From: an uncultured delta proteobacterium
GTDB lineage: Bacteria; Myxococcota_A; Polyangia; Haliangiales; Haliangiaceae
Length of the DNA: 64,000 nucleotides
Assembly: GCA_963772655.1 (NCBI GenBank)
Contig: CAVYYE010000003.1
Span: forward strand, 2,609,341-2,673,340
Direction: 5' to 3'
The notes under the pieces are model-generated. The model was not told the DNA's origin. It was given only the letters and a program-made list of their open reading frames with translations, and made no database searches. Both the position numbers and the translations under genes were made by a program. How positions within the stretch are numbered: the stretch's first letter is position 1; each line of letters begins with the position of its first letter. This document shows, in pieces, positions 3,223-49,712 of the stretch.

Positions 3223-3279
3223 CCGACCGCGTCCGGACCCGGACCCCACGAGCCACGCGATCCGCGATACACCTCCGGA

Positions 3280-3801
3280 ATGCGCCTGGTGTTCGTGTCG
3301 TTGCTCGCGATCGGGTGCGGGGGTTCGGGGACCAAACCTACCCACCCGCAGTCGACGCCGCCGGATGCGGCGAACGGCGACACCACCAAGGCCGTGGTCA
3401 AGACGCCGTTCTCGCTCGAGGTACTCGAGGTCGAGGCACGCAGCGAGGTGGCGCAGCCGTTCGCGGAGCAGCTGAGCAGCTCGTTGCGTGCCGCCGCGCG
3501 CGAGTACGACGCGATCAAGCTCGGCCCCGGCTCCCACAACCTGGTCGATCAGAAGGTGCTGGTGGCCTGCGACGACGAGGCGCCCACGTGCATGGCCAAG
3601 GTCGCGCACAACGTGCACGCCGACCGCATCGTGTACGGCTCGCTGGAGCCCAGCGGTCCCAAGCTCGACATCGTGCTGAAGTTGCTGGTCGCGAAGACCA
3701 AGTACGTGATCGAGTGGACGGGACGGGTCTCCCCCGACGACGCCAGCCTGAAGGCCACGGCACGCGATGCGATGGCGTCGCTCCTGAGCCGCGCACCATG
3801 A
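3280..3801 (+). CDS. lipoprotein, hypothetical
   Basis: Signal peptide with lipobox LLAIGC; 173 aa; first of three consecutive small lipoprotein genes. Confidence 0.5.
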   Translation: MRLVFVSLLAIGCGGSGTKPTHPQSTPPDAANGDTTKAVVKTPFSLEVLEVEARSEVAQPFAEQLSSSLRAAAREYDAIKLGPGSHNLVDQKVLVACDDEAPTCMAKVAHNVHADRIVYGSLEPSGPKLDIVLKLLVAKTKYVIEWTGRVSPDDASLKATARDAMASLLSRAP

Positions 3802-35695: not shown

Positions 35696-36487
35696 ATGGA
35701 TGATCGTGGGCGGTTCCTACACTACGATGATCCGGTGGCAGGTCGGACCTTTGCCATCGGGGACATCCACGGCGATCTCACGGCATTGCAGGTGCTGTTC
35801 GAACGGCTACCCGAACGCACCGCCGACGACACCATCGTATTCCTCGGTGACTACATCGACCGCGGCCCCGAATCGGCCGGCGTGATCGAGTTCGTGCGCA
35901 AGCTCGAGACCTCGGGACCCGCGAAGGTGGTCTCGCTGCGTGGCAATCACGAGGACGCGTGGCTACAGGTCATCGACAAGGGCTGGCCGGAGTTCATCAT
36001 GCCGCGCTCGAACGGCTGCCTCGAGTCGTACCGGTCCTTCACCAACGGCGACATTCCCGACGACGATGACCTCCCGGAGTCGAAAGAGCTCCAGGCGATG
36101 TTCGAGGGCGGGTTCTTCCCCAAGGACGTCGTGGCGTGGATGCGCGAGCTCCGTCACTTCTTCGAGGACGATCACGCGATCTACGTGCACGCCGGGATCA
36201 AACGCACTGCCGGTCGGTTCCCTCATCCCTCCGAGGTGTCGCCACCGCGCGCGCTACTGTGGTTACGCGATCGCGACTTCTTCGAGAACTACCGCGGCAA
36301 GCTCGTCGTGTTCGGTCACACCACGACGCGCACGTTGCCGAACGAGCTCTCGACCTACACGCCGGAGGACCCGACGGATCTCTGGGCCGGACCGGCGTGC
36401 GTCGGGCTCGACACCGCGTGCGGCAAGGGCGGGTTTCTGACGGCGTTCGAGCTGCCCGCGCGTCGCGTCTACGAATCTCGTGGCTGA
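35696..36487 (+). CDS. PPP-family serine/threonine protein phosphatase (metallophosphoesterase)
   Basis: GDIHGD, GDYIDRG, RGNHE motifs; start placed at MDDRGRF to avoid overlap with the convergent/divergent OMP gene. Confidence 0.8.
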   Translation: MDDRGRFLHYDDPVAGRTFAIGDIHGDLTALQVLFERLPERTADDTIVFLGDYIDRGPESAGVIEFVRKLETSGPAKVVSLRGNHEDAWLQVIDKGWPEFIMPRSNGCLESYRSFTNGDIPDDDDLPESKELQAMFEGGFFPKDVVAWMRELRHFFEDDHAIYVHAGIKRTAGRFPHPSEVSPPRALLWLRDRDFFENYRGKLVVFGHTTTRTLPNELSTYTPEDPTDLWAGPACVGLDTACGKGGFLTAFELPARRVYESRG

Positions 36488-38759
36488 CAGCGCTCCTCCG
36501 AAACACTCCACCGCCGGAACGCCGGCGATCCGGATGGCCCGCGCGCTCGCGTCGCCGCGCGGCGTGCTCGTCACGATCCCCCTGCTGGTGATCGCCGTCG
36601 GGCTCGGGATCCTGTTGCTCGGTCGCGACGCCACGCGCACCGCGAGCTCCGATCTCGCGCGACTCCAGATGACCGAGCAGGTCGAGAGCGTACAGGCCGA
36701 GGTCGCACGCGCACTCGATCAGGCGGAGCCGTTGATGGCACGCACGCGGGTGCTCGCCGAGCGCCTGCCCCCGGATCCCGATCTCACGGACGTGCTCCTC
36801 CACCTCCACGATCTGATCGTCGGGCGCCCCGGCGTGTCGTACATCAGCGTGAGCTTTCCCGACGGTCGCTACTACCATGCCAACGCGACCGCCTCCGGCG
36901 TGATCGAGGTCCAGGAGAGCCGGTTTCGCGACGACGGCAAGACGCGCGTGCGGTGGTTCACGATCTCGGGTCGCAAGCTGGTCGCACGGCGCGAGCTGAT
37001 CAACGACTACGATCCCCGGCAGCGGCCGTTCTACAAGATCGCCGTCGCCGCGCGCGCCCGCGCATGGACCAAGCCGTACACGTTCGCGCTCACGTTCGAT
37101 ACCGGGATCACCTGCACCGAGCCGGTGTTCGATACATCGGGCGCGGTGCGCGCAGTGCTCACCGTCGACTTCGATGTCGGCGCCCTCTCGCGCCTGGTAT
37201 CGCGGCCGACACTCGACGGTGCGCGCACGATCGTCTACACGGGCAAGGGCACGATCCTCGCGTACCCCTCGGCGGGCGAGAAACCACCGAAGCACGGCGA
37301 CGAGCTGCTGTCGTACCAGGCGCTGCACGATCCCGCGCTCGATGCACTGTTCGCGAAGTCCACTGCGTCGAGCGTGCAGCTCCTCGACCTCGGCGCCAGC
37401 AGCAGCGGGTGGCTCGCCGCGGTGGCACCGATCGGTGGCCGGCGCGCCGGCGTCAACGTGCCGCTCGACTGGTACGTCGCGACCATCGTCCCGAAGGCGA
37501 CGCTGCTCGGCCCGACCCGCACGCTCGAACGCCGCAGCTTGATCGCCAGTGGTGGCGCCCTCGCGATCGCCGTCGCGCTCGCCTTGATCCTGGCGTGGAA
37601 CCTGGTGCGGATGCGGCGGCAGGTCGCGCAGTCGCGCGAGGAAGCGCGCTCGGCGAACGCGCGTGCTCGGGAGCTCGGCAGCTACCGCCTGGTCGCGCAG
37701 CTGGGTTCCGGCGGCATGGGCGAGGTGTGGCGCGCCGAACACCGGATGCTGGCGCGCACTGCCGCGATCAAGTTGATCCGCCCCGAGGCGATGCGCGATC
37801 CGGACAGCATCGCCGAGGTACGCGAACGGTTCCGGCGCGAAGCGCAGACGCTCGCATCGATGAAGTCGCACCACACGATCGCGCTCTACGACTACGGAGT
37901 CACCGAGCACGGCGTGTTCTACTACGTGATGGAGCTCCTCGACGGTATCGACCTCGAGTCGCTGGTCGTGCGTTATGGCGCGCAGCCCGCCGCACGCGTG
38001 ATCCGGATCCTCATCCAGGCGTGCGCGTCGCTCGCGGAGGCCCACGACGCCGGGCTGCTCCACCGTGACATCAAGCCACCCAACCTGTTCCTCTGCCGCG
38101 AGGCCGACGAGCTCGACGTCGTCAAGCTGCTCGACTTCGGCATCGTCGCGACGCCCAACGATCCCGAGCTCGAGGCCGCGAAGCACACGCCCGAGCCCGA
38201 ACCCGAGCCCGAGCCCGAGGCGCCGACCAGCCTTGCTCACTCCAAGCTGACGCGACTCGGTGCGATGGTCGGAACGCCGGGGTTCATGGCGCCCGAGCAG
38301 ATCCTCGGCATGGAGCTCGACGGTCGCTCGGATCTCTACGCGCTCGGGTGCTGCGCGTGGTGGCTGCTGGTCGGGCACGAGGTGTTCACGCGCGAGCAGA
38401 GCCACGGCAAGTTCCTGCACCAGCACATCCACGACACACCGCCGTCGCTCCGACTCGCGATGCAGGGATGGTGTCCACCCGAGCTCGAACACGTGATCCA
38501 CGCGTGTCTCGCGAAGACGCCGGAGGAACGCCCCGCCGACGCGCGAGTCCTCGCCGCACGATTGCGCGCGATCGAGATCCCCGACGAGCACGCGTGGACC
38601 GAGGCCGATGCCATTTCGTGGTGGGCCACCTACGAGCCACCGCCGGTCAGGCTGCCGCCGACCGGCGAGGTCCACGTGATCATGCCCGGGCGCACCGACC
38701 AGCGGCCGATGGCCGCGACGTCGGACGAAGCGATCGGCCCGACGATCGCGCAACGCTAA
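36480..38759 (+). CDS. sensor serine/threonine protein kinase with N-terminal extracytoplasmic domain between two TM helices
   Basis: TM1 VLVTIPLLVIAVGLGILLL, ~300-aa extracytoplasmic domain, TM2 LIASGGALAIAVALALILAW, kinase domain LGSGGMGEVWRAEH..AIKLI..HRDIKPPN..DFGIV..GTPGFMAPE; start may be at a downstream Met. Confidence 0.85.
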   Translation: MADSAPPKHSTAGTPAIRMARALASPRGVLVTIPLLVIAVGLGILLLGRDATRTASSDLARLQMTEQVESVQAEVARALDQAEPLMARTRVLAERLPPDPDLTDVLLHLHDLIVGRPGVSYISVSFPDGRYYHANATASGVIEVQESRFRDDGKTRVRWFTISGRKLVARRELINDYDPRQRPFYKIAVAARARAWTKPYTFALTFDTGITCTEPVFDTSGAVRAVLTVDFDVGALSRLVSRPTLDGARTIVYTGKGTILAYPSAGEKPPKHGDELLSYQALHDPALDALFAKSTASSVQLLDLGASSSGWLAAVAPIGGRRAGVNVPLDWYVATIVPKATLLGPTRTLERRSLIASGGALAIAVALALILAWNLVRMRRQVAQSREEARSANARARELGSYRLVAQLGSGGMGEVWRAEHRMLARTAAIKLIRPEAMRDPDSIAEVRERFRREAQTLASMKSHHTIALYDYGVTEHGVFYYVMELLDGIDLESLVVRYGAQPAARVIRILIQACASLAEAHDAGLLHRDIKPPNLFLCREADELDVVKLLDFGIVATPNDPELEAAKHTPEPEPEPEPEAPTSLAHSKLTRLGAMVGTPGFMAPEQILGMELDGRSDLYALGCCAWWLLVGHEVFTREQSHGKFLHQHIHDTPPSLRLAMQGWCPPELEHVIHACLAKTPEERPADARVLAARLRAIEIPDEHAWTEADAISWWATYEPPPVRLPPTGEVHVIMPGRTDQRPMAATSDEAIGPTIAQR

Positions 38760-39334
38760 CGGCGCGCGCCCAGCAACTTCCGAAGTGGATTGCGACGCTG
38801 TGCGCGAAGCGCCGCGCCCGCCGAGGCGGTGCGGGCGCGTGCCGCGTGCTTGGCGTGCATGAAGCGCTCGCGCTCGCTACCCACGAACACCTCGCGCGTA
38901 CCGGCGAACATGTCGAACCACGACCACACGACGCCGAAGTTCTTGTCCTGATCCCCCATGTGGTGATCGTAGTGATGCGGTAGGTGATCTCGTCCCCAGC
39001 TCGGATCGAGATGCGAGCGCTTGTGCTCGCGGCGGTAGCGGGCGAGGCAGTACCAGATCGTCGACGTGTAGAACGGCACGACCGGAAACAGCGGCGCGTG
39101 CGCGAGCCCGATCGCGATCAAGCCGATCGCCTCGCGCGCCTGCGTCGTCGAGCTCCACGGCGGTCCCTCGTACGCCGGGTCGTAACCGCCGTTACGGCGC
39201 ACCGACTGATGATGCTCGTGATAGTGAAACGAGAACCGGCTCTTGCGATCGCGGCCCAGCCCGTGAAGCAGGTACTTGTGCGTGGCCCACTCCCCGTACC
39301 CGAACACGGCAAGGCCGAGCGGAATCCCGATCAT
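38756..39334 (-). CDS. fatty acid hydroxylase / sterol desaturase superfamily membrane protein
   Basis: Histidine boxes FHYHEHH and HHYDHH, hydrophobic segments; 192 aa. Confidence 0.7.
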   Translation of the reverse strand: MIGIPLGLAVFGYGEWATHKYLLHGLGRDRKSRFSFHYHEHHQSVRRNGGYDPAYEGPPWSSTTQAREAIGLIAIGLAHAPLFPVVPFYTSTIWYCLARYRREHKRSHLDPSWGRDHLPHHYDHHMGDQDKNFGVVWSWFDMFAGTREVFVGSERERFMHAKHAARARTASAGAALRAQRRNPLRKLLGARR

Positions 39335-39393
39335 GTGCGGATCCTCCCAGCGCGATGTATCGGCGGCAACACTTCTTTACGCTGCGAGGTAAC

Positions 39394-40692
39394 ATGCGCT
39401 CGATGTTCGTGCGACGAGGTCTGGCCACCGCCACGGTCGCACTGTGCGGTTGCTCGTACACGCCGCCCGACACGCCGGTCGACGCACCACCCGACACCGG
39501 CGCATGCGCCAACGCGCACGCCGAGTGCGTCGACGACACGTTGTTCTCGTGCGCGGCTCCCGGCGCCCCGCTCGTCGAGGAAGCCTGCACGTGGGGTTGC
39601 GAGACCAGTGACGGCGCACACTGCCGTCGCATCACGCCCGCGGGTGGTGGTGCCACCGCGAACGATCTCGATCCGGAAAACTACTCCGGCATCGTGTCGT
39701 ACAGCCTCGCCGGCGTGCTCGACGGCGGCATCGGTACGATCAACGGCAACCCCGCGGGCAGCATCGGCGTCGGCTACCAGATCGAGAACGGTGTCGCGGT
39801 GTTCCGGTTCGCGGATCTCTCGGTCGGCGTCGTCAAGCTCACCGGCACGGTCCCGATCGCGCTGGTCGCAGACGGTCCGATCGTCGTGTCCGGCATCATC
39901 GACGCAACCGGTCAATGCGTCACCGGCTCGCCGGAGATCGCCGGACCGGGAGGTGCAAACGGCGGACTGACGAGCGGCGTCGATGGCGGCGATCCCGGTG
40001 GTGGCAGCGGTGGCAATGCCAACCTCGGCCTCGGCGGTGGCGCGGGTGGCGGTCACGGTGTCGACGGCAGCATCTCGGGCAACGCCGAGCCCGGTGGTTC
40101 CGCGTTCGGCGACGACGCGATCACCGAGTTGCGCGGTGGTGGTGGTGGCGGTGCCGGTCGCGGCACCGGCGCGACCTCGTTCGTGGGCGGTGGCGGAGGC
40201 GGTGCGATCCAGCTGGTGTCGAACACGTCGATCGAATTCATGGCGACCGGCAGCATCAACGCCGGTGGTTGCGGCGGTCAGCGCGGCGCGCAGATCGGTG
40301 ACGAAGGTGGTGGTGGTGGTGCGGGGGGAACGATCCTTCTCGAGGCACCCACCGTTCACCTCGGCCCGACCAGCATCCTCGCGGTCAACGGCGGCGGTGG
40401 GGGCGGTGCCGCCGGCGGGAGCACCACGGCGCAAGCGGGTGCCACGGGAGGACTCACCCGCACGCCGGCGAACGGTGGCAACGGCGGGACCGGCGGTGGC
40501 TCCGGTGGCGTCGGCGGGGCCGGCGTGTTGCCCTCGGGGTTGCCGGGTAGCAATCCGGCCGGTGGCGGTGGCGGCGCGGTCGGTCGCATCCGGATCAACA
40601 CGCTCGCGGGCAGCGCGAGCATCGAGGGCACGATGAGCCCCGACTTCGGAGACGTGTCGACGGCGACCCAGGGCGTCGCCACCACGCAATAG
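39394..40692 (+). CDS. glycine-rich repeat lipoprotein, hypothetical
   Basis: Lipobox TVALCGCS; long Gly-rich repetitive region (GGGGGGAGRGTG...GGGGGGAAGGS...NGGNGGTGGGSGG). Confidence 0.55.
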   Translation: MRSMFVRRGLATATVALCGCSYTPPDTPVDAPPDTGACANAHAECVDDTLFSCAAPGAPLVEEACTWGCETSDGAHCRRITPAGGGATANDLDPENYSGIVSYSLAGVLDGGIGTINGNPAGSIGVGYQIENGVAVFRFADLSVGVVKLTGTVPIALVADGPIVVSGIIDATGQCVTGSPEIAGPGGANGGLTSGVDGGDPGGGSGGNANLGLGGGAGGGHGVDGSISGNAEPGGSAFGDDAITELRGGGGGGAGRGTGATSFVGGGGGGAIQLVSNTSIEFMATGSINAGGCGGQRGAQIGDEGGGGGAGGTILLEAPTVHLGPTSILAVNGGGGGGAAGGSTTAQAGATGGLTRTPANGGNGGTGGGSGGVGGAGVLPSGLPGSNPAGGGGGAVGRIRINTLAGSASIEGTMSPDFGDVSTATQGVATTQ

Positions 40693-40696
40693 ATCG

Positions 40697-41053
40697 CTAC
40701 AGGCGATCCTCGGTCGTCGGATCGGACTCCTCGATCGAGCAGTCGATCCGCACCGCATCGCACGATCCCTCTTCGTCGAGCTGGATCCCGATGCGGCGAA
40801 CCGCGAGCGCGATGCCGAACGCGACACCCTTGTCCTCGATCACCTTCCGATACGGGTCGACGGTGGCTTCTTCCCAGTTGACCTCGTCGAGATCGGCCGC
40901 GTTGAGGATCCAACCCACCGCAGGAACCGTCGGCAGCCACACCGTGAACGTGCCCACGTAGACGCCGTTACCCGAGGTCAGCTCGCGGCCGAACACGCGA
41001 ACCAGCGCTCGCATACGATCCAGTTTCGCCATCGGCCGGGGAATGTACGTCAA
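40697..41053 (-). CDS. hypothetical protein
   Basis: 118-aa ORF with acceptable codon usage, no recognisable motif. Confidence 0.4.
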   Translation of the reverse strand: MTYIPRPMAKLDRMRALVRVFGRELTSGNGVYVGTFTVWLPTVPAVGWILNAADLDEVNWEEATVDPYRKVIEDKGVAFGIALAVRRIGIQLDEEGSCDAVRIDCSIEESDPTTEDRL

Positions 41054-41133
41054 ACCCGAGTGTCTGGGGGCAGTTGCAGGTCGTTGTCTCGATCCGAGGC
41101 GGTCGTGCGACGACCCGGTGAAAGGACCAAGAC

Positions 41134-41565
41134 ATGTTCAGCATCGACACCACCATCGACATCCCTGCTCCACTCGCCACCGTTCGCACCGCGATCACCA
41201 CGCTCGAAGGCTTTCGCGGCTGGTGGACCGAGGACACCGAGATCGACGACGCCACGCAGGAGGCGACGTTCCGGTTCGTCAAGACCGAGACCATGCAGTC
41301 GACCTTCCGCATCGATCGCATCGACGACCGCGGCATCGCGATGACGTGCGTTCGCGAGATCAACAGTCCCGACTGGCGCGGCACCGAGCTCGTGATCGAG
41401 GTCGAGCCCGCCGGGGACGGCACGCGCGTTCACCTCGTGCACTCGGGGTATCGCACCAAGAACGAGACCTACGACATGTGCACGAAGGGTTGGGCGTTCT
41501 TCCTCGGTAGCCTCGTCAAGTACGTCACCACGGGCACCGGCGAGCCATTCGCGCGGGCCGCATGA
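41134..41565 (+). CDS. SRPBCC family protein (Activator of Hsp90 ATPase homolog 1-like)
   Basis: IDIPAPLATVRTAITTLEGFRGWWT resembles the IDAPxExVWxALTDPExxxxW N-terminus of AHSA1/SRPBCC proteins; 143 aa. Confidence 0.75.
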   Translation: MFSIDTTIDIPAPLATVRTAITTLEGFRGWWTEDTEIDDATQEATFRFVKTETMQSTFRIDRIDDRGIAMTCVREINSPDWRGTELVIEVEPAGDGTRVHLVHSGYRTKNETYDMCTKGWAFFLGSLVKYVTTGTGEPFARAA

Positions 41566-41577
41566 TAGGAGCGAGCC

Positions 41578-41958
41578 ATGCCTAACCCCGATCCACAAAC
41601 CACCGGTGTTGCGATGCTGCTGTTTCGCGACGAAGGAATCGACTGGTCGGAGTACGAAGACGACGAGCGCGGCAAGGCGATGTTCCAGCGGTTCGTCGAC
41701 TGGGCGGCCGACCTCGATCGGCGAGGCATCCTGGTCGGCGTCGATCCGCTGGTGCGCGGCGGCAAGACCGTGCGGCGCAAGGGCGCCAGCATCGTGATCG
41801 ACGGGCCCTACGCCGAGGGACGCGAGGCCGTGCTCGGCTACTACATGGTGCGCGCCGCCGATCTCGACGAGGCGTGCGAGCTCGCTGCGGAGGCACCGCA
41901 CACCCAGCTCGGAGGAGCGACCGAGGTCCGGATGATCGGCGCGTTCCCCAAGCCGTGA
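41578..41958 (+). CDS. YciI-like / DGPF (YCII-related) domain protein
   Basis: 126 aa; IVIDGPYAEGREAVLGYYMVRAADLDEACELAAEAP matches YCII-related domain (DGP[FY]AE..E..GG); adjacent to ECF sigma gene. Confidence 0.75.
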   Translation: MPNPDPQTTGVAMLLFRDEGIDWSEYEDDERGKAMFQRFVDWAADLDRRGILVGVDPLVRGGKTVRRKGASIVIDGPYAEGREAVLGYYMVRAADLDEACELAAEAPHTQLGGATEVRMIGAFPKP

Positions 41959-41968
41959 GGCTCTCGGC

Positions 41969-43165
41969 TCAGCGCAGCTCGGCGAGGCGGTCCTCGAGGA
42001 ACCGGCGCTCGGGCTCGGTGCCCGCCAGCTCGAGCGCCCGCCGGTAGGCCGTGCGCGCCGCGCGCTTGTCACCGCGTTGCGCCTGCAACTGACCGATCGC
42101 CGCAGCCAGCACCGGATCGTCGTCGAGCCGCGCGTCGCCCGCGACTTGCTGGAGGGCGCGCAACCCGACCTTCGGTCCGTGGGCATGCCCGATCGCGATC
42201 GCGCGCTGCATCGCGACCACCGGCGAGGGTTGCAGGGCGAGCAGACGATCGTAGAGCGCGACGATTCGCGCCCAATCGGTCGCGTCATACACGGGGGCCA
42301 ACGCGTGACACGCCGCGATCGCCGCCTCGACGTGATATGGCGACATCGCGTCGCCGGCCGAAGCCGTCGCGAGATGCGCGAGCCCGGTCTCGATCATGCC
42401 GCGGTCCCAGCGCGTGCGGTCCTGCCGATCGAGCGACACCAGGTTTCCGGCCTCGTCGACGCGCGCCGCCAGCCGCGCCGTCTGGAGCAAGAACAACGCG
42501 TGCAACGCGTGGCCTCGCGGGGTCGGAAACCGTTCGAGCACCAACTCGTGGAGCCGGATGGCCGTGCGGCAGAGATCCTCGTCGATCTGTTGCTCGCCCG
42601 CGTGGACGCTATAGCCCTCCAGGAACAGCACGTACAGCGTTCGCAGGACCGCGTCGAGCCGCAGTTCGACATCGTCGGTCAGCTCGAGCTCGACGCCGAG
42701 CTCTCGCAGCGTCTGGCGAGCGCGCAACAGCCGCTTCGCGATCGCCGCCTCGTCGGCGTACAGCGCGCGGCACAGCGCCGGCACCGGGAACCCGCACAGC
42801 GTGCGCAACGCCAGCGCCAGCGCACTCTCCACCGGCAACGCGGGGTGGCAACACACGAACATCATCCGCAGCAGCGCGTCATCTCCCGTCGGCGGATCGG
42901 GAACCGCTTCGATCGCGTCGAGCTCGTCGGGTGGCGCGAACCGTGCCGCGCGACGCAACGCATCGATCACGCGCCGGCGCGCGACCTCGTGGAGCCAGGC
43001 CGCCGGCCGTTCCGGTGGAGTCTCGCCCCAGGCCTCGAGCGCGGCGACGAACGCTTCCTGCACGCCGGCTTCGATCACATCCAACCGGTGCGGCCCGAAC
43101 GCGTGGGCGAGCGACGCGATGAGGAACGGCGCGTGCTCGCGATACAGCGCGTCGAACGAGATCAC
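41969..43165 (-). CDS. ECF sigma factor with C-terminal TPR-like extension (ECF42-type)
   Basis: N-terminal sigma-70 region 2 (FDALYREHAPFLIASL..) and region 4 (LRTLCGFPVPALCRALYADEAAIAKRLLRAR), ~200-aa C-terminal helical/TPR-like extension; GTG start inferred. Confidence 0.8.
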   Translation of the reverse strand: MISFDALYREHAPFLIASLAHAFGPHRLDVIEAGVQEAFVAALEAWGETPPERPAAWLHEVARRRVIDALRRAARFAPPDELDAIEAVPDPPTGDDALLRMMFVCCHPALPVESALALALRTLCGFPVPALCRALYADEAAIAKRLLRARQTLRELGVELELTDDVELRLDAVLRTLYVLFLEGYSVHAGEQQIDEDLCRTAIRLHELVLERFPTPRGHALHALFLLQTARLAARVDEAGNLVSLDRQDRTRWDRGMIETGLAHLATASAGDAMSPYHVEAAIAACHALAPVYDATDWARIVALYDRLLALQPSPVVAMQRAIAIGHAHGPKVGLRALQQVAGDARLDDDPVLAAAIGQLQAQRGDKRAARTAYRRALELAGTEPERRFLEDRLAELR

Positions 43166-43671
43166 GGCGCGAGCATCGCACGCGACGCCGAAAGTGCCGA
43201 ACCCCCTCCACGCTTGCGCGGGAAGGGGGCTCGTCGGAGTTGTCTTTGGTGGCGTGATCGGGGTGTCGGCGTGTGCGAACCGTAGCGTGCTAGGCCGGCG
43301 AGAGCCGGGGCGACGAGCTAAGCGGTCATTCCACACAACGTCGCGACGACGGCGACCAGCGCGTTCTCCTTCTACAGCTTACGGATCGTCACGTGCGTGC
43401 AACAAATGCGACCTCCATCGGTAACCCGGCTGACTCGAAGAGTCCCGTGGCTTTGCGTAGCCCGCTCGCGCGGGGGTTGCCGTTTCGTGGCGCGGGATGT
43501 TCCCCGCCTGGTGTCGATACGACTACCTCGAAGGACCTGCCCTGATACGAGTCGCTGTTCTCACTCTCCTCCTTTGGTTGGTCGAAGGTGATTGATTCCA
43601 CCGTAACGGAAGCGAGTGCGAGTTGTCACGAGAAAATCGACGACGAGAGATCGTCATCGCGCAAGCGCGCG

Positions 43672-43983
43672 CTACGACTCGGGCAAGTACGCGCGCGGTA
43701 TCGCAGCACCGCGAAGAAACTGTCCGCGACGGCGACGACGATTGAGTCGGTAGGTACCGAGCAGTGTGCCGAAACCGAGGAACACTCCCGATAACGCGAA
43801 CAGCCATGACACGCCGAGCGCCGGAACCAGCAGGCCGACGGTGAGTACGACACCGGTCCCACCGAGCGAGCACCACACGATGTCGGCGGCGTACCGACGC
43901 GACCACGCGTCGTACTCGAGCTCGCAGCTCGCACACCACTCGCGCTCGTCTTCGATCTCGCCGTTGCAGCGCGGGCAGGTCAC
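43672..43983 (-). CDS. zinc-ribbon membrane protein, hypothetical (possible anti-sigma-like factor)
   Basis: N-terminal CPRC-x13-CASC zinc ribbon, two TM helices, basic tail RRRRR; upstream and co-oriented with the ECF sigma gene. Confidence 0.5.
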   Translation of the reverse strand: MTCPRCNGEIEDEREWCASCELEYDAWSRRYAADIVWCSLGGTGVVLTVGLLVPALGVSWLFALSGVFLGFGTLLGTYRLNRRRRRGQFLRGAAIPRAYLPES

Positions 43984-44006
43984 GGGGGAACCGTACCGCG
44001 AAACGG

Positions 44007-44675
44007 TCAGGTGCGCCGAGGGAAGCCTTCGAACAGGTAGCCCTTGTCGACCCCGCTATCGATCAGGCGGATCGAGCAGTTCTGCGGGTTGCGCTCGTTC
44101 TCGAACCACTCGGGCGACAGGTGGCACCACATCATGACAAACGCGCGCAGGGTGACGCCGTGGCAGATCACGACGATGTCGTGGATGCCGTGGAACTCGG
44201 CGTCGCGATGGAAGGTGCCGAACGCCTGGTGGATCCGCTTGGCGACGTCGAACCGGCTCTCGCCCTGCGGCATCCGCGCCCAGAACTTGCCGCCGAACCG
44301 GCACTGCATGTCGTAGTACGCGAACTCCTGAGGGAACCGGATCGGGAGCTCCTCGTCGGGCACGCCGTCGAACACGCCGAACTGCTGCTCGCACAGGAGG
44401 ATGTGCTCCTTGCGATCGGTGATCACCGCACCCGCCGCGGCCTGGATCGCGTCGGCGGTCTGCCGCGTGCGCTTGTAAGGGCTGACCCACAACCGGACGT
44501 GGCGAAGACCGACGACGTGCTGCCGACCGAAGTGCTCGGCGATCTGGAGGCCAGCCTCGTGCGCCTGCTCTTGCCCGCGGTCGGACAGCGGGATGGTGTG
44601 GTCGGCGGTGGTGGCGTGGATCGTGGGATCGACGTTGCCCATCGACTCGCCGTGCCGCACCAGCAGGATCCGCAT
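44007..44675 (-). CDS. histidine phosphatase family protein (phosphoglycerate mutase-like)
   Basis: MRILLVRHGESMGN catalytic RHG motif; 222 aa. Confidence 0.8.
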   Translation of the reverse strand: MRILLVRHGESMGNVDPTIHATTADHTIPLSDRGQEQAHEAGLQIAEHFGRQHVVGLRHVRLWVSPYKRTRQTADAIQAAAGAVITDRKEHILLCEQQFGVFDGVPDEELPIRFPQEFAYYDMQCRFGGKFWARMPQGESRFDVAKRIHQAFGTFHRDAEFHGIHDIVVICHGVTLRAFVMMWCHLSPEWFENERNPQNCSIRLIDSGVDKGYLFEGFPRRT

Positions 44676-44926
44676 CTGCGACCATCGTAGCTGCGTTCCT
44701 GAATCAGGTGCTCCGTTCGAGCCGGCGTTCGTTCGCCCGCTGCCAACGGCGGTGGCAGGTCGTCGCTCTCGCGCGCAGTGCCGAGCTCGAGCTTTTGCCG
44801 AAGCGATCGCCAACCGAGTGTACGATCCGTGATCGATCGCCAACCCGATTGGCGGCGAATCGAGTTGCCGGTCCAATGACGATCGCGAGTTAGCGCGTGG
44901 AACTCGCGTTGCACACAGTGCGCGCC

Positions 44927-46330
44927 ATGTCGCTCCTTCGCTTCGCCTTGCTCACGACGTTGCTGTTCGCCTGCAGTGGTGGTGGGAGTGGGACCGGTGA
45001 CGACGACGTCGGACCCGACGCCAGCGTCACCCCGCCAGGCTCCACCGATCCGCTCGACGGACTCCCCACCGGTGTCGACCAGTGGAACGCGCTGTGCGCC
45101 AAGGGGTACGGCGACATGATCAGCGCGAAGTTCTGTGCGGGTTCGACACCGCCGACCATCACATCGCTCGCCCAGCTCGAGCAGTTCCTCGGGCTACGCG
45201 TGCAGCCCAATCCCAACAACGACCCCAACATCAACAAGACCATCCGGTGGACGCTGACCGGTCACTCGACGGGACTCGGCCTGCGCTCGGTGACGCCGCT
45301 GACCCCGCGCGCGTTCATCATGACCACGCCCAACAACACGGCGCCCAACCCGCAGTACCAGGTGGTGTCGTTCTCGCGCGGCGAGCCGCTGGTCGAGCTG
45401 GTCGCCAACGATCCCAACGCCAACACGTTGCGGTTCTTCCTGGTCAGGTTCCACCCGGCGTGCGAGGCCACGGGCTGCAATGCCGCCGACCTGCTGACGC
45501 CGTCGATCGAATCGGGCTGGACCGACTACACGATCTACGACGACGACACGATCAAGAACACCACGCTCGACTGTCTGACCTGTCATCAGCCGAACGGTCC
45601 CAACACCACCAAGATGCTGCGGATGCAGGAGCTCGCCGGCCCGTGGGCGCACTGGTTCTATATCGAGCACAACTCCAACAAACTCACGATGGACGACTTC
45701 CACGCCGCGCACGGCAACGAGGACTACGCCGGCATTCCGATGTCCGCGATCAACCCGTCGCGCCCGATCCAGTTGATGAAGCTGGTGCAGAACAACGGGT
45801 TCGCCAACCAGCCCGACTCGTTCGACAGCACCACGATCGAGAACGAGCTCGCGGCCACCGGCACCAGCGCGACCTGGAACGCGCGGTACGCCAAGACGGT
45901 CGCCGGCACCGCGATCCCGGCGCCGTACTACGGGATCCCGCAGACCGATCCGGTCAAGGTCGCCCAGATGGTCCAGGCCTACTCCGCCACGATGGCCGGC
46001 ACGCTGCCGCGCGACCAGATGCCCGACATCAACGACACCCTGCTCGATAGCGCGCTACCCGCGATGTCGATCCGCCCGAAGGCCGGCCTCGACGGCAAGG
46101 GCATCCTCGATCACATGTGCCGGATGTGTCACAACGGCCTGCTCGACCAGACCATCACCCGTGCGCGGTTCGACATTTCGCAGCTGTCGTCGATGTCGCG
46201 CGGCGAGAAGGACGAGGCGATCCGGCGGCTGATGCTCCCGGAGACCGACGCCAAGCACATGCCCCCGGCGCGGTTCCACACGCTGTCGGACGCCGAGCGC
46301 GACCTCGCGATCCAGGAGCTGTCGCAGTAA
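44927..46330 (+). CDS. putative di-heme c-type cytochrome lipoprotein
   Basis: Lipobox LLFACSGG; two CxxCH heme-binding motifs (CLTCH, CRMCH) ~180 aa apart. Confidence 0.65.
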   Translation: MSLLRFALLTTLLFACSGGGSGTGDDDVGPDASVTPPGSTDPLDGLPTGVDQWNALCAKGYGDMISAKFCAGSTPPTITSLAQLEQFLGLRVQPNPNNDPNINKTIRWTLTGHSTGLGLRSVTPLTPRAFIMTTPNNTAPNPQYQVVSFSRGEPLVELVANDPNANTLRFFLVRFHPACEATGCNAADLLTPSIESGWTDYTIYDDDTIKNTTLDCLTCHQPNGPNTTKMLRMQELAGPWAHWFYIEHNSNKLTMDDFHAAHGNEDYAGIPMSAINPSRPIQLMKLVQNNGFANQPDSFDSTTIENELAATGTSATWNARYAKTVAGTAIPAPYYGIPQTDPVKVAQMVQAYSATMAGTLPRDQMPDINDTLLDSALPAMSIRPKAGLDGKGILDHMCRMCHNGLLDQTITRARFDISQLSSMSRGEKDEAIRRLMLPETDAKHMPPARFHTLSDAERDLAIQELSQ

Positions 46331-46382
46331 GCGCGCAGGCAGTAACACCCGCCCTGCGTGCGTGGTATGAGACGTCTGCCCG

Positions 46383-49300
46383 ATGGCCGACGTCGACCTG
46401 GAGCTCGCCAGCATCGGCGTCGTGCTCGTCGAGGAGCGAGTGCTCCGACGCGTCATCAAGGGCCACCGCAAGTTGCGCGGGGTCGGCCTGCTGGTCCCGC
46501 ACGCGCATTGCTACCAGCTCCCCAAGGCCGACCTCGTCGACCACGTCGATGACGACGAGCTGACGGTCGACCTCGACAAGCTGCCCGAGCGGATCGTCCT
46601 GTTGCCCTCCGAGCGCGGCCGCGCGACGACCCCGGAGGAGTGGACCGCGGCGTGGCGAGAGATCTTCCACGCGCGGATTCACCTCGCGTTCGAGGACAAG
46701 CTCGCGGAGCGCCGGCTGACGCTGTCGGCGATCCGCGAGCGGATCAACCGTCTCGGCCAGACCGAGTTCGACGAGATCCGGTCGGTGCTCAAGCAGGAGG
46801 CGCTGCTGCTGCCTCCGGTCGACGACATCGCGACCTACGTCGAGTTCGCGGCGCTCTACCTCGAGCTCGAGAACTTCGCACCGACAGCGATCGAGCGCAC
46901 GTTCCCGGCGCTGTTCGACACCGCCCGGGTCGATGCCACGCTGGCGCTCGACCTCGACGCCGCGGAGCTCCTGGCGGCGGCCCGACCGCCGAGCGCCCCC
47001 TCGACCCCGGTGATCGCGTCGCACGTCGCCCAGATCCAGCGCGACACGCGCGCGGCAGTGCTCAGCGACACGGCGAAGCAAGCGGCCCACGAAGCCGCGC
47101 TGACCGCACGCGACAAGGGCAATCGCTCGCGCGCCGCGATCCTGCACTACCGCGCCGGGATGGCGGTCGCCGGGCGCGCCGACATCGAGGAGCTGGTCGC
47201 GCGCCTGTCGCGCGCGCTCGATCCGCCCGAGCTCCCGGAAGCCGCCGAGGCGGTCTCGACGTCGCGGCGGAGCACGGCGCCGCTGCCCGCGGTCGACAAG
47301 GAGACCGCGCAGCGCTGGGTCGACGAGCTGTGCAAGGTCGCCGAGTACGCGGCGCGCCAGACCTCGCTGCGGTTCTCGATCGGCGCGCGGCTGCTCTACG
47401 ATCTGCAGGCGGCGTGCGTGGTCGCCGAGCGCGAGGTCAAGGTCGTCGACGTCGCGACCTGGGCGCTGTCCCGCGGCAAGCGACCGATCGTGCGCGAGCT
47501 GCCCGCGACGCGCGAGGTCCGCATCGCGAAGCACGTCAAGGGCGCGGTCGCCAAGGTGCCGACGTGCGGCGTGCCGACGCCCGATCTCACGGCGGTGCTG
47601 CGCGACGTCCAGGCGCGCGCCGACGGCAACGTCCGCGCGGTGATGCGGCCGAAGATCGAAGTAGCGCTCGATCAGGTCGACCTCCATCCGCACAGCCTCC
47701 CCGAGCGCGTCGGAGAGAAGAAGCTTGTCGACGAGCTACTCGACCGCGCGGTCGCCGTAGGCCGCCTCTCGATCGGCAGCCTGCGCGACGCGCTGTCGAA
47801 GAACGACCTCAAGACCAACGACCTCACGCTGTCCGAGCTCAAGACCGGCGATCAGCTACTGCGTTGCGACGACATCCTGTCGCACTCGATGGACGGCGTG
47901 TACCGGCGCGGCGAGCAGTACATGCGGGGGCTCCAGCGCTTCAGCTCGGTGCTGTTCGGCACTCGCGTCGGCCGCTGGCTCACCCTGTACCTGATCCTGC
48001 CCGCGCTCGGCGCACTCGCCGTGATGGAGGGGCTCCAGCACACGGTCGGCCTCTTGATCCACAAGCTCACCGGCAACGAGCCCGAGATCTCGACGCAGAC
48101 CTCGAAGCTGGCGTGCGCCGCGTTCCTGTTCCTGCTGATCCACGTCAAGCCGTTCCGCAAGCTCGCGATCTGGGTCGGCCTCAAGATCTGGTGGCTGATC
48201 AAGCTGCTGCTGTGGGACCTCCCGCTCGCGATCTGGCGCCACCCGATCGCGAACCGCTACTTCGAGAGTCGCTTCCACGGCTGGATCGTCCGACCCGCGC
48301 TGCTCGGCGCGATCGCGTGGCTCGCGATCCCGAGCCGGTTCGAGATCCCGCTCGCCCGCGAGCTCCGTCACGTCGTCGCCGTCGGCGTGGTCATCCTCGC
48401 CATGGTCGTGATGAACACGCGGATGTGGAAGGTGCTGCAGGAGCGGATGGCCGACTGGGCCGTGCGCTCGGGCCGTCACGTCACCACGCGGCTGTTGCCG
48501 GGCGCGCTCAAGCTGATCCTCGAGGTGTTCAGCAAGTTGATCGAGCGCTTCGATCGCGCGATCTACCGCGTCGACGAGATGCTGCGGTTCCGCAAGGGCC
48601 AGTCGAAGATCGTCGTCGTCTTCAAGGGCACGTTCGGCGCGCTGTGGTTCATCGTCACCTACGTCCTGCGGCTCTACATCAACCTGTTCGTCGAGCCGAC
48701 GATCAACCCGATCAAGCACTTCCCCGTGGTCACGGTCGCGGCGAAGCTGATCATCCCGATCTTGCCGTCGCTGCTCGAGGGCATCACCAACGCGACGCAG
48801 CCGCTATTCGGAGCGTTCGCCGGCACGTTCGCCGGCTTCACGGTGCTCGTGCTTCCCGGGCTCGCCGGCTTCTTGGTGTGGGAGTTCAAGGAGAACTGGC
48901 GTCTGTACCGCGCGACGCGCCCGACGATCGTCCACGCGCAGGCGATCGGACATCACGGCGAGACCATGATCGCGTTCCTCAAGCCCGGCTTCCACTCGGG
49001 CACGATCCCGAAGCTGTACACGCGCCTGCGCCGCGCGGCGTGGCGCGACGACGAGCGCGGTGTCGCCAAGGCCAAGGAAGGGCTGCACCACGTCGAGGAA
49101 GCGATCGCCACGTTCGTCGATCGCCAGCTGGTGTCGATGCTCAACGAGGTCGAGTCGTTCACACCGACCGACGTCACGGTCACCCACGTCGAGATCGGAT
49201 CGAACCGCGTGCAGATCGAGCTCGCGTGTCCGAGCGTGGCGCGCGAAGCAGCGCGGATCCGGTTCGAGCAACAATCCGGGTGGCTGGTCGCGAGCATCCC

Positions 49301-49712
49301 GGAGCGCGGGTGGCTCGCTCACCTCGACGACCACGCGCGCCGGATCTTCGAGATCTCCTTGACCGGGTTCTACAAGCTGTCGGGGGTCGAGCTCGTACGC
49401 GAGCAGCTCGAGTACGCGTTGCGCGGCGAGAGCGGCACGCCGCCGCCGTACGACGTCGCCGACGAGGGGCTGCTGGTGTGGCCCGCCGGCGCCTACAACA
49501 CCGAGGCGATCTACGATCTCCACCGCGCCAAGCTGACGCCCACGATGCGCGGCGAGCCGTACGGTGGTGGGCTCCCCGATCTCGCGCGCCACCACGCGCT
49601 GTTCGCGCGCGAACCGCTGTACTGGTCGGTGTGGTCGACGGCGTGGCAACAGATCGCGCGCGGCGAACAGCCGATGCCGCTGCTCGTGGGGCCGCACCTG
49701 CTCGCGGCCTAG
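46383..49712 (+). CDS. large hypothetical membrane protein (soluble ~550-aa N-terminal region plus polytopic C-terminal region)
   Basis: 1109-aa ORF with consistent codon usage; multiple predicted TM helices in C-terminal half (e.g. WLTLYLILPALGALAVM, LACAAFLFLLIHV, IWWLIKLLLW, VVAVGVVILAMVVM, FGALWFIVTYVL). Confidence 0.7.
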   Translation: MADVDLELASIGVVLVEERVLRRVIKGHRKLRGVGLLVPHAHCYQLPKADLVDHVDDDELTVDLDKLPERIVLLPSERGRATTPEEWTAAWREIFHARIHLAFEDKLAERRLTLSAIRERINRLGQTEFDEIRSVLKQEALLLPPVDDIATYVEFAALYLELENFAPTAIERTFPALFDTARVDATLALDLDAAELLAAARPPSAPSTPVIASHVAQIQRDTRAAVLSDTAKQAAHEAALTARDKGNRSRAAILHYRAGMAVAGRADIEELVARLSRALDPPELPEAAEAVSTSRRSTAPLPAVDKETAQRWVDELCKVAEYAARQTSLRFSIGARLLYDLQAACVVAEREVKVVDVATWALSRGKRPIVRELPATREVRIAKHVKGAVAKVPTCGVPTPDLTAVLRDVQARADGNVRAVMRPKIEVALDQVDLHPHSLPERVGEKKLVDELLDRAVAVGRLSIGSLRDALSKNDLKTNDLTLSELKTGDQLLRCDDILSHSMDGVYRRGEQYMRGLQRFSSVLFGTRVGRWLTLYLILPALGALAVMEGLQHTVGLLIHKLTGNEPEISTQTSKLACAAFLFLLIHVKPFRKLAIWVGLKIWWLIKLLLWDLPLAIWRHPIANRYFESRFHGWIVRPALLGAIAWLAIPSRFEIPLARELRHVVAVGVVILAMVVMNTRMWKVLQERMADWAVRSGRHVTTRLLPGALKLILEVFSKLIERFDRAIYRVDEMLRFRKGQSKIVVVFKGTFGALWFIVTYVLRLYINLFVEPTINPIKHFPVVTVAAKLIIPILPSLLEGITNATQPLFGAFAGTFAGFTVLVLPGLAGFLVWEFKENWRLYRATRPTIVHAQAIGHHGETMIAFLKPGFHSGTIPKLYTRLRRAAWRDDERGVAKAKEGLHHVEEAIATFVDRQLVSMLNEVESFTPTDVTVTHVEIGSNRVQIELACPSVAREAARIRFEQQSGWLVASIPERGWLAHLDDHARRIFEISLTGFYKLSGVELVREQLEYALRGESGTPPPYDVADEGLLVWPAGAYNTEAIYDLHRAKLTPTMRGEPYGGGLPDLARHHALFAREPLYWSVWSTAWQQIARGEQPMPLLVGPHLLAA

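Follow-up and report, generated by a model that had tools for sequence, protein, structure and literature searches.

An ECF42-type sigma factor gene preceded by a predicted c-di-GMP-I riboswitch leader in an uncultured delta proteobacterium

ECF42 is among the most widespread groups of ECF sigma factors, and to our knowledge neither its physiological inputs nor the functions of its DGPF, SRPBCC and VOC targets have been established. Work on the group has covered Sinorhizobium meliloti RpoE10, Streptomyces venezuelae SVEN_0747/4377/7131 and Pseudomonas putida ECF-10. ECF42 factors have been described as local regulators with small regulons (PMC7776599), and in S. venezuelae the C-terminal extension is reported to be needed for activity (see the reviews PMC8999054 and PMC9023288). 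The mapped promoters of RpoE10 read TGTCGG-N17-CGTC, and YCII, glyoxalase/VOC and AHSA1 genes make up the classes of its experimentally defined regulon (PMC6180224). On the RNA side, described c-di-GMP-I (GEMM-I) riboswitches include Vc2 of Vibrio cholerae and the GEMM-I/Ib elements of Geobacter.

Here, we analyse a sigma factor locus in a 64-kb stretch of DNA (the window), for which a preliminary description had listed an SRPBCC protein, a YciI/DGPF protein, an ECF42-type sigma factor and a zinc-ribbon membrane protein. All four ORFs were confirmed at their coordinates; absent from that description was a c-di-GMP-I riboswitch in the 506-nt gap upstream of the sigma gene. We consider it probable that the locus is a three-gene ECF42 cassette in which sigma drives SRPBCC-YciI, with the c-di-GMP riboswitch leader as its likeliest extra regulator and the zinc-ribbon gene unrelated to it. 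Like the studied ECF42 factors, the window sigma combines a sigma2-sigma4 core with a C-terminal extension of about 200 aa that ends in TPR-like repeats, has a YCII-related/DGPF gene but no anti-sigma factor next to it, and has a predicted small local regulon (SRPBCC-like and YCII, with VOC/glyoxalase in relatives) and a promoter of the type TGTC(C/G)G-N17-CG(T/A)C. It differs from them in several respects. In the commoner ECF42 layout YciI lies directly upstream in the same orientation, whereas in the myxobacterial clade SRPBCC-YciI is convergent with sigma; the clade has the -10 element CGAC rather than the usual CGTC; the window protein carries DGPY rather than DGPF; and a c-di-GMP-I leader precedes the window sigma gene, a case not found in the ECF42 literature searched.

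The sigma gene (41969-43165, minus strand) encodes 398 aa. In Pfam searches its product matched Sigma70_r2 (4e-9, 36.5 bits, cut-off 24) and DUF6596 (4e-32, 111 bits, residues 226-325 of the long ORF), and Sigma70_r4_2 scored 16.7 bits (0.006), under the cut-off of 25.7; PF08281 is recorded in several homologues of 69-72% identity. The NCBIfam sigma70-ECF model also remained under its cut-off (9e-10), and the domain search gave no match to region 1 or region 3. The N-terminal part is matched by M. tuberculosis SigE in Foldseek as well as in PDB phmmer, so that the sigma2 and sigma4 core expected of an ECF factor is found in the combined Sigma70_r2, SigE and homologue PF08281 evidence. As for the extension, Pfam recognized only weak, sub-threshold TPR_7 and TPR_15; the AF2 model (pLDDT 86) is all-alpha with 20 helices, of which those in residues ~166-396 are paired, and the best PDB matches of the model are the TPR proteins Tom70, consensus TPR, LGN and TTC0263. 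DUF6596, these helices and the Foldseek matches bear out the TPR-like C-terminal extension proposed in the preliminary description. At least 7889 homologues exist, and every one listed carries PF04542 and PF20239. The start at 43165 agrees with the homologue lengths of 396-420 aa and recurs in an independent gene call on an identical contig, and the in-frame extension upstream to 43336 has a non-coding-like codon-position GC content. No anti-sigma family was matched among the neighbours in Pfam or NCBIfam.

On the opposite strand, the SRPBCC/AHSA1-family gene (41134-41565, plus strand, 143 aa; Pfam AHSA1 9.9e-9, Polyketide_cyc2 2.5e-7) is followed after 12 nt by the YCII-related/DGPF-type gene (41578-41958, plus strand, 126 aa; Pfam YCII, PF03795, 2.4e-12), whose motif is DGPY at residues 75-78. 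The SRPBCC protein is 50-57% identical to its same-cassette copies in L001-3 and L005-8 (62% for a partial copy in L008). These two genes had been described as lying beside sigma: their domains are confirmed and the adjacency is kept in orthologues, but they are convergent with the sigma gene rather than co-oriented. The stop codons of YciI and sigma are 10 nt apart, with no terminator found between them. A YciI/DGPF gene lies near 62 of the 80 homologous sigma genes, which, together with the PF03795 match, upholds the proposed YciI/DGPF neighbour. With the domain architecture and the promoter described below, it supports a link of both SRPBCC and YciI to sigma.

A search for ECF42-type -35/-10 elements located one upstream of SRPBCC-YciI that is conserved and resembles the mapped RpoE10 promoters. 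It reads TGTCTC-N17-CGAC (TGTC-N19-CGAC; 41085-41111, plus strand); a Shine-Dalgarno-like GAAAGGA (41120-41126) comes next, ahead of the SRPBCC start codon, ATG, at 41134. In myxobacterial relatives (L001-3, L005-7, L091 and L093), TGTCCG-N17-CGAC and a conserved 5' UTR stand upstream of SRPBCC, and the upstream block of about 50 nt is conserved in orthologues whose sigma is 66-73% identical to that of the window. The window -35, TGTCTC, deviates from the clade consensus TGTCCG. At distant loci, the first YciI gene has TGTCC-N18-CGTC in front of it (41 of 84 hits). The 101 ORFs that follow the motif include 41 YCII, 26 glyoxalase/VOC and 11 AHSA1, which are the gene classes of the RpoE10 regulon. 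Note that the bare motif is not above chance in the window (3 found, 4.4 expected), and therefore the support for the window promoter is its position and conservation; no second plausible ECF42-type site was found in the 64 kb. We infer that sigma uses the promoter at 41085-41111, with SRPBCC leading the operon that is predicted to depend on sigma. Domain architecture, the YciI/DGPF neighbours and the ECF42-type promoter agree with the ECF42 identity given in the preliminary description, and this assignment is supported on the grounds of architecture, neighbourhood and promoter.

The riboswitch aptamer is 75 nt long (43417-43491, minus strand), with its 3' end 251 nt ahead of the sigma start codon. 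It matches Rfam RF01051 with 52.8 bits, where the gathering score is 35 (E=1.8e-7 across the 64-kb window; model positions 1-87 of 87), and is the sole Rfam match in the 64 kb; RF03167 scored 50.6 bits on it, under the gathering score of 59. As in described GEMM-I elements, the full model is covered, P1b is capped by a GNRA loop, P2 and the canonical ligand-contact nucleotides are present, and the aptamer is part of a long 5' leader that points the same way as the downstream gene. In the alignment there is an unpaired G before a GC pair (position 20), an A after ACGC (position 47) and an intact GUUACCG, identical to the 3' strand of Vc2. We take these alignment positions to correspond to the contacts A47 and C92 in Vc2 numbering, where G47 would presumably denote the GGC variant. 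G at position 20 selects c-di-GMP and A20 selects cGAMP (PMC6456294). From G20, the predicted ligand is c-di-GMP rather than cGAMP.

The pairing of such a riboswitch with a sigma gene was seen in one genome only. No riboswitch occurs in 8 orthologue loci, no riboswitch-sigma pairing among 94 loci (1.39 Mb including the window), and none among 120 loci whose GEMM-I P2 helix is similar. The similar GEMM-I elements sampled are followed by genes for secreted or surface proteins, receivers, secretion or motility, unlike the ECF sigma gene in the window. A homologue of the whole leader, about 480 nt in length, was found on another contig (L137) before a T3SS-type ATPase gene. The comparison of the leader involves these two sequences. 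They are homologous from end to end, as far as 21 nt ahead of the sigma start, and show compensatory changes; the two aptamers are 97% identical, with one compensatory change, from C-G to U-A.

The 3' part of the leader conserved with L137 (43187-43299, minus strand) is a candidate expression platform. It contains the blocks GCCGGCCTAGCACGCTACGG (43299-43280) and TTCGGCACTTTCGGC (43201-43187), the latter of which could pair with the former or with the 5' strand of the aptamer, and a covarying hairpin (43232-43199) that RNAalifold keeps and in which both partners of 5 pairs have changed. The platform spans about 230 nt; no canonical intrinsic terminator and no helix sequestering the ribosome-binding site was found in the leader, whose folding z-scores are unremarkable. 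At its other end, a putative housekeeping-type promoter, GTGACA-N18-TACGGT (43600-43629, minus strand), was recognized by eye and recurs identically in L137; it did not pass a strict consensus promoter scan. In orthologous sigma genes the GTG start lies 7-12 nt from a promoter, TTGTAA-N17-TACGTT. The window has the leader in place of the -35 region of the orthologues, and its -10 reads GATGCT, with the first base changed; this degenerate ancestral -10 next to the sigma start could still fire.

Based on the above, the following mechanism is proposed. Sigma would direct RNA polymerase to the promoter at 41085-41111, from which the convergent SRPBCC-YciI(DGPF) operon would be transcribed. By analogy with the studied ECF42 members, its activity would be governed by the fused extension, with no membrane anti-sigma factor. 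Its synthesis would depend on the leader, made up of the promoter at 43600-43629, the aptamer at 43417-43491 and the structured region to 43187, which would have taken the place of a housekeeping-type promoter. We infer, the control of sigma from position only, that this RNA binds c-di-GMP, that it gates the expression of sigma and in which direction it does so; in this organism, c-di-GMP would thereby act on sigma synthesis and through it on SRPBCC-YciI. In terms of evolution, there is about an even chance that an intact c-di-GMP-I leader, linked elsewhere to a T3SS/flagellar-type ATPase gene, was recruited before the ECF42 sigma gene and replaced that gene's own promoter.

The cassette alone would be a new ECF42 member with a clade-specific convergent layout, and nothing more. 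The riboswitch may tie this little-understood family to a second messenger. If functional, it would give an ECF42 regulon a defined input, c-di-GMP, that can be tested, and would provide a natural case of a whole riboswitch leader moving between unrelated genes. The proposed mechanism, if true, would amount to a riboswitch-gated ECF sigma factor, whose SRPBCC and DGPF/YciI regulon is controlled by a second messenger through RNA, and would exemplify the rewiring of a sigma regulon by a portable riboswitch leader.

Could the leader instead be a passenger, duplicated or displaced from its usual place before another gene, such as one for a T3SS/FliI-type ATPase, which regulates nothing or ends as a terminated short RNA, so that sigma is constitutive from the promoter remnant and controlled only by its C-terminal extension? 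The same leader before a different gene in L137, the lack of the riboswitch at the other ECF42 loci examined, the receivers and secreted proteins rather than sigma factors encoded after similar riboswitches, and the remnant of the orthologous -10 still beside the sigma GTG would all agree with this. However, the aptamer is intact and far over the Rfam cut-off, the leader is conserved end to end with compensatory changes, and the ancestral promoter has lost its -35 and differs in the first -10 base. In addition, sigma is the only ORF on the minus strand after the leader and before the convergent YciI, leaving the leader no other available target gene. We therefore regard the passenger explanation as possible but doubtful, and the c-di-GMP-I leader as the most likely extra regulator of sigma. 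A similarly tentative place is given to the idea that YciI/DGPF, perhaps with SRPBCC, is a ligand-sensing partner of the TPR extension that switches sigma in a self-contained sensor or feedback loop. A regulatory role of YciI has been proposed in a review (PMC8999054), TPR folds make protein-protein contacts and the tight tail-to-tail sigma/YciI layout is conserved, whereas the YCII gene of S. meliloti was not induced on RpoE10 overexpression (PMC6180224). This partnership is compatible with the riboswitch-led mechanism and does not exclude it. That sigma belongs to another ECF group and carries an incidental helical C-terminal extension might be suspected from the sub-threshold Pfam TPR matches and from an assignment that draws on architecture, neighbourhood and promoter; but the DUF6596 match is strong, and the DGPF neighbour, the promoter and the downstream gene classes are as published for ECF42, which makes another group very unlikely.

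The preliminary description had itself named a different candidate for an additional regulator, the zinc-ribbon protein encoded at 43672-43983 (minus strand); in such a role it might act as an anti-sigma-like or signal-transducing partner. In keeping with that description, the gene is upstream of and co-oriented with sigma, and the product has two CxxC pairs and two hydrophobic segments, as in many membrane anti-sigma factors. The ORF is a real gene with 56 homologues of 45-73% identity, which share four invariant cysteines (C3, C6, C17 and C20; the motif contains no histidine), the pair of hydrophobic segments and, at the C terminus, an invariant PRAYLP. In having cysteine pairs and transmembrane segments the protein recalls the membrane ZAS/zf-HC2 anti-sigma factors, but the HxxxCxxC motif, a family match and co-occurrence with sigma are missing: no Pfam or NCBIfam family was matched, anti-sigma families included. 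The gene occurs in none of the 80 sigma-homologue loci, the 8 closest orthologues among them, and was not called in three further close sigma contexts; conversely, no sigma gene lies within 6 kb of it in five independent relatives. Such lack of conservation beside orthologous sigma genes is what the preliminary description had named as telling against its proposal, and the regulatory role is not borne out. What the zinc-ribbon gene keeps in the five contexts is FA_hydroxylase (4-nt overlap to ~50-nt gap) and His_Phos_1 (4-nt overlap to ~10-nt gap). In the window it is 23 nt downstream of the histidine-phosphatase gene and 506 nt upstream of sigma, a gap that holds the riboswitch leader and, directly past the zinc-ribbon stop, a terminator-like hairpin with a T-run (43631-43659, minus strand; 9-bp stem at 43659-43638, then ATTTTCT), which would separate the zinc-ribbon transcript from the riboswitch-sigma unit. 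An anti-sigma identity of this protein is rejected on the lack of co-occurrence and of any anti-sigma domain (ZAS HxxxCxxC, zf-HC2 or RskA). We give almost no credence to the zinc-ribbon protein as an ECF42 regulator; on this gene-context evidence it is an unrelated neighbour of sigma. A plausible-looking but false candidate is thereby removed, and the protein is assigned to another conserved pair, with an FA_hydroxylase-family membrane enzyme.

The juxtaposition of the two genes in the window is due to an insertion of about 3 kb within the His-phosphatase/zinc-ribbon/FA-hydroxylase block. The inserted segment (40693-43671; 2,979 bp) is missing at this position in relatives, where the zinc-ribbon gene and the homologue of the Gly-rich-protein gene stand tail-to-tail with a 3-nt gap (L085) or a 7-nt overlap (L081). 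It contains the small orphan gene hyp118, SRPBCC-YciI, sigma and the riboswitch leader, and no flanking repeats were found in a search for them. Judged from these comparisons, the cassette, the orphan gene and the ~480-nt leader together interrupt a conserved gene block as a lineage-specific insertion. The order of sigma followed by convergent YCII and AHSA1 is also present in L001-3, L007, L008, L091, L093 and the P0060 contig, and the tail-to-tail gap between sigma and YciI measures 10-40 nt in most cassettes, that of the window included, and 119 nt in L008; in L093 the genes overlap. Among 84 YciI homologue hits, 70 have DGPF in the motif column and 10 have DGPY, as the window does.

The four ORFs named in the preliminary description are all present in the window, whose G+C content is ~68%, and the coding status of each is backed by codon-position GC. 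The SRPBCC protein gene (41134-41565, plus strand) matches AHSA1 and Polyketide_cyc2, and the YciI gene (41578-41958, plus strand) matches the YCII family. The sigma ORF (41969-43165, minus strand) matches Sigma70_r2 and DUF6596 (E=4e-32), with weak Sigma70_r4_2 and TPR matches, and the zinc-ribbon ORF (43672-43983, minus strand) is without Pfam or NCBIfam match. A longer sigma ORF (start 43336, 455 aa) was rejected, since its 57-codon in-frame extension has a non-coding-like composition (GC1/2/3 of 0.63/0.72/0.70) and its length disagrees with those of homologues (396-420 aa) and with an independent 398-aa gene call on an identical contig, both of which fit the start at 43165. The SRPBCC and YciI genes do lie beside the sigma gene as described, but on the opposite strand and convergent with it; 10 nt separate the YciI and sigma stop codons, and no terminator was found between the two genes. 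Similarly, the zinc-ribbon gene is co-oriented with the sigma gene, but it is located 506 nt upstream, with a terminator-like hairpin in between.

The zinc-ribbon membrane protein had been put forward as a candidate additional regulator of the sigma factor. It belongs to a genuine conserved family of small proteins, for which 56 homologues were found. Its cysteines C3, C6, C17 and C20 and its C-terminal PRAYLP are invariant, and it also has an arginine run and two hydrophobic segments. However, the expected co-occurrence failed: the zinc-ribbon gene is missing from all 80 sigma loci and from three further close sigma contexts, and no sigma gene was found in five independent contexts of zinc-ribbon homologues. 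In those five contexts the gene follows His_Phos_1 (4-nt overlap to 10-nt gap) and precedes an FA_hydroxylase-family gene (4-nt overlap to 50-nt gap), within a block ordered as 470-aa cytochrome-like protein, His-phosphatase, zinc ribbon, optional Gly-rich protein, FA_hydroxylase, dCache Ser/Thr kinase and Metallophos. The same His-phosphatase / zinc-ribbon / FA_hydroxylase block is present in the window, where the zinc-ribbon gene is 23 nt downstream of the histidine-phosphatase gene and has the terminator-like hairpin at its 3' side. On co-occurrence and synteny, the zinc-ribbon protein was rejected as a regulator of the sigma factor, which is the outcome that the preliminary description had named as refuting its proposal.

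The proximity of the two genes is a by-product of an insertion. The zinc-ribbon and Gly-rich genes are tail-to-tail in two relatives, separated by 3 nt in L085 and overlapping by 7 nt in L081, whereas in the window they are 2,979 bp apart. The inserted segment (40693-43671) holds the small gene hyp118, the SRPBCC-YciI pair, the sigma gene and the 506-nt gap. Neither direct or inverted repeats nor mobility genes were found at its borders, so that no mobile-element signature was seen. The orphan hyp118 (40697-41032/41053, minus strand) is divergent from the SRPBCC gene; it has only three database matches, one of which is the copy in the genome of the window. A single further context was looked at, and it has no relation to the sigma cassette.

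The zinc-ribbon contexts (L081-L090) also outlined the surrounding block. In the window the zinc-ribbon gene (43672-43983), the His-phosphatase gene (44007-44675) and the FA_hydroxylase gene (38756-39334) are all on the minus strand, and the syntenic block around the insertion extends over 36480-49712, with a ~1100-aa membrane protein at its start and an OMP beta-barrel at its end (L081, L083, L085, L087, L089). The 470-aa protein of the block is cytochrome-c-like, and the Gly-rich gene (39355-40692; 430-445-aa proteins) is without Pfam match and occurs only in some relatives. The zinc ribbon and the FA_hydroxylase-family membrane protein form a conserved gene pair, whose stop and start codons often overlap, and a histidine-phosphatase gene usually comes before the zinc ribbon. 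It might be speculated that the zinc ribbon is a membrane-anchored metal-binding partner of this di-iron-type enzyme.

The assignment of the sigma factor to ECF42 is based on the published defining features, namely architecture, neighbourhood and promoter, which were checked singly. The protein has a sigma2/sigma4 core followed by a long C-terminal extension. Proteins of the sigma-70 family are reported to be nearly the only ones with DUF6596, which they carry at the C-terminus (PMC11119718). With 38 homologues as input, AlphaFold2 gave a model (pLDDT 86, pTM 0.82) of 20 helices, and its best PDB matches are TPR proteins (Tom70, consensus TPR arrays, LGN and TTC0263), with the N-terminal part matched by M. 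tuberculosis SigE; neither the sequence search nor the fold search found a solved ECF42 structure. The DUF6596 match, the helical model and the structural matches bear out the C-terminal TPR-like extension proposed earlier. The family is large, with at least 7889 proteins at E<=1e-10, and among the matches listed all carry PF04542 and PF20239. Among 80 loci with sigma homologues (38-72% identity) in GTDB genomes, 62 have a YciI homologue within 10 kb, in agreement with the view of the DGPF/YciI protein as an ECF42 neighbour. Of 84 YciI matches, 70 show the name-giving motif as DGPF and 10 as DGPY; the window has DGPY.

A search upstream of the SRPBCC and YciI genes, as the preliminary description had advised, identified an ECF42-type promoter, TGTCTC-N17-CGAC (41085-41111, plus strand), followed by a Shine-Dalgarno-like GAAAGGA and the SRPBCC ATG at 41134. 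The bare motif has no weight alone, because it occurs in the window at chance level (3 found, 4.4 expected). The site is conserved in orthologues: a ~50-nt block, GTCGTTGTCCGGAAC...TTCGACGACCC.GTGAAAGGAC, is kept upstream of SRPBCC in the myxobacterial orthologues, and the sequence farther upstream is unrelated. For distant loci (Verrucomicrobiota and others), TGTCC-N18-CGTC precedes the first YciI-type gene by 40-90 nt (41 of 84 matches). Altogether 124 occurrences of the motif were found in 1.29 Mb of sigma loci, and the 101 ORFs directly downstream include 41 YCII, 26 glyoxalase/VOC, 11 AHSA1 and 6 3-dmu-9_3-mt proteins. These classes are those reported for the regulon of RpoE10, the ECF42 factor of S. 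meliloti, whose mapped promoters read TGTCGG-N17-CGTC and whose regulon comprises an operon linked to YCII as well as glyoxalase-like proteins and a protein that binds hydrophobic ligands (PMC6180224). ECF42 factors have been described as local regulators with small regulons (PMC7776599). Based on the architecture, the neighbourhood, the conserved promoter, the RpoE10-like target classes and this description, we accept that the sigma factor is an ECF42 member linked to SRPBCC-YciI, and we infer that it would itself use the promoter at 41085-41111. Autoregulation was rejected, since no TGTC...CG[AT]C exists on the sigma strand in 43166-43671 and the orthologues carry a housekeeping-type promoter. 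Further targets in the window were also rejected, because the sole other strict motif matches are at 20.8 kb, within coding sequence rich in repeats. This stretch (~20780-21120) has repeated units GTCGTTGTCGAGATCGGG(G/A)CAGCCGTCCTCGTC, its other strand encodes Asp-rich DxDxDG-type repeats, and the matches are considered to be chance.

We consider the most interesting element at the locus to be an RNA one, which the preliminary description does not mention. The Rfam scan of the whole window gave a single match, a full-length c-di-GMP-I aptamer (RF01051) at 43417-43491 on the sigma strand (minus), which scores 52.8 bits (gathering score, 35). Its ligand-contact nucleotides are canonical in the alignment to the consensus. 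The c-di-GMP-I-GGC variant was ruled out, since RF03167 scores below its own cut-off and position 47 (Vc2 numbering), which we take to be a ligand-contact site, is A. A cGAMP-specific aptamer was ruled out as well, because position 20 is G, which indicates c-di-GMP and not cGAMP (PMC6456294). On the sigma strand, the sigma gene is the only gene from the zinc-ribbon terminator to the convergent YciI gene. Two smaller candidate targets were dismissed: for AAGGAG at 43371-43366, no start codon (ATG, GTG or TTG) is suitably spaced, and a 70-aa ORF (43389-43601) shows poor GC3 and runs across the aptamer.

A longer leader (43187-43629) encloses the aptamer. About 480 nt of the 506-nt gap align with a metagenomic contig (L137:2100-2745), and six blocks on the minus strand are in common: a promoter-like GTGACA-N18-TACGGT (43629-43600), 43546-43530, the aptamer (43491-43417; 97% identity and a single compensatory change, C-G to U-A), 43401-43382, 43299-43280, and a hairpin (43232-43199) with TTCGGCNCTTTCGGC (43201-43187) after it. 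In the hairpin the two contigs differ in sequence but not in pairing, five pairs being changed on both sides. The 43201-43187 block has two alternative partners for pairing, the 43299-43280 block and the aptamer core's 5' strand. Expression platforms are expected to show such alternative pairing, and on a comparison of two sequences only this region is a candidate for one. The gene behind the leader in L137 (2754-4241; PF00006 + PF18269) encodes a T3SS/FliI-type ATPase, which suggests that whole riboswitch leaders may move between unrelated genes. Orthologous sigma genes (L001-L008) have a promoter-like element, TTGTAA-N17-TACG(T/C)T, 7-12 nt from the conserved GTG start, implying nearly leaderless sigma mRNAs. 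The window differs from this: its leader stops 21 nt short of the sigma GTG and has taken the place of the -35 element, and GATGCT stands at the -10 position. The string GCACGCTACG recurs upstream of sigma in L001-L008 and in the window leader (43291-43282).

The riboswitch-sigma pairing was seen in this genome only. It was absent from eight orthologue loci, from a set of 94 loci (1.39 Mb including the window), and from 120 loci whose GEMM-I P2 helix is similar, where the downstream genes encode receivers, Ig/fn3 surface proteins and proteases. Consequently, the leader could have been displaced and have lost any regulatory role, in which case the sigma gene would be driven by what is left of its own promoter. 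We hold this to be rather unlikely. Neither a canonical terminator nor a ribosome-binding-site-sequestering helix was found downstream of the aptamer, and the folding energies there are unremarkable, the minimum-free-energy folds being no better than shuffles.

What was observed directly is the identity of the genes, the conserved cassette, the promoter motif, the synteny, the match to the aptamer and the homology of the leader; the regulatory steps of a functional leader are inferred. Most likely, the leader promoter would start a transcript near 43593 and the aptamer would sense c-di-GMP. Whether transcription or translation reaches the sigma gene would then be decided by the conserved structured region or, possibly, by a C-rich, G-poor tract (43290-43215); the switch may act in either direction, that is, c-di-GMP may raise or lower sigma. 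Once made, sigma would direct RNA polymerase to 41085-41111 and SRPBCC-YciI would be expressed. Judging from the ECF42 members that have been studied, sigma activity would also depend on the fused extension, possibly via a protein partner (PMC8999054, PMC9023288). Because the genes are convergent without a terminator, sigma-driven transcription of the target operon would enter the 3' end of the sigma gene, and feedback via transcriptional interference or antisense RNA is conceivable. The feature added here is a complete and apparently portable c-di-GMP-I leader replacing the sigma gene's own promoter, which we did not find described in the literature searched; a search for c-di-GMP riboswitches upstream of ECF sigma genes returned nothing relevant, which is not proof of absence. 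The leader and the ECF42 cassette are a new combination of two known parts, not a new mechanism.

The cassette itself is an additional member of the well-described ECF42 type, and its convergent layout is specific to the clade. The closest relatives are MAGs of Myxococcales and Polyangiaceae and metagenome contigs whose sigma is 61-73% identical; in them YCII and AHSA1 follow the sigma gene in tail-to-tail orientation to it, with sigma/YCII gaps mostly from a 4-nt overlap to 40 nt, and 119 nt in L008. In distant lineages YciI is usually co-oriented with sigma, directly upstream or downstream. In some relatives the same promoter precedes an additional gene divergent from sigma, either a further AHSA1 gene or a short ORF without annotation. 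For example, L093 has a second AHSA1 gene (1172-1603) with an ECF42-type promoter, and L004 and L007 have an unannotated upstream ORF with such a promoter, which begins MPESTAVSIALAHVDAWTHHDW in L007. Therefore, the local regulon of this clade is sometimes larger than that of the window. In another close relative, L091, the sigma gene (2493-3695) overlaps the end of a Ser/Thr kinase gene (589-2496; Pkinase + PatA_N) by 4 nt, which hints at a possible kinase coupling of the ECF42 factor in that organism.
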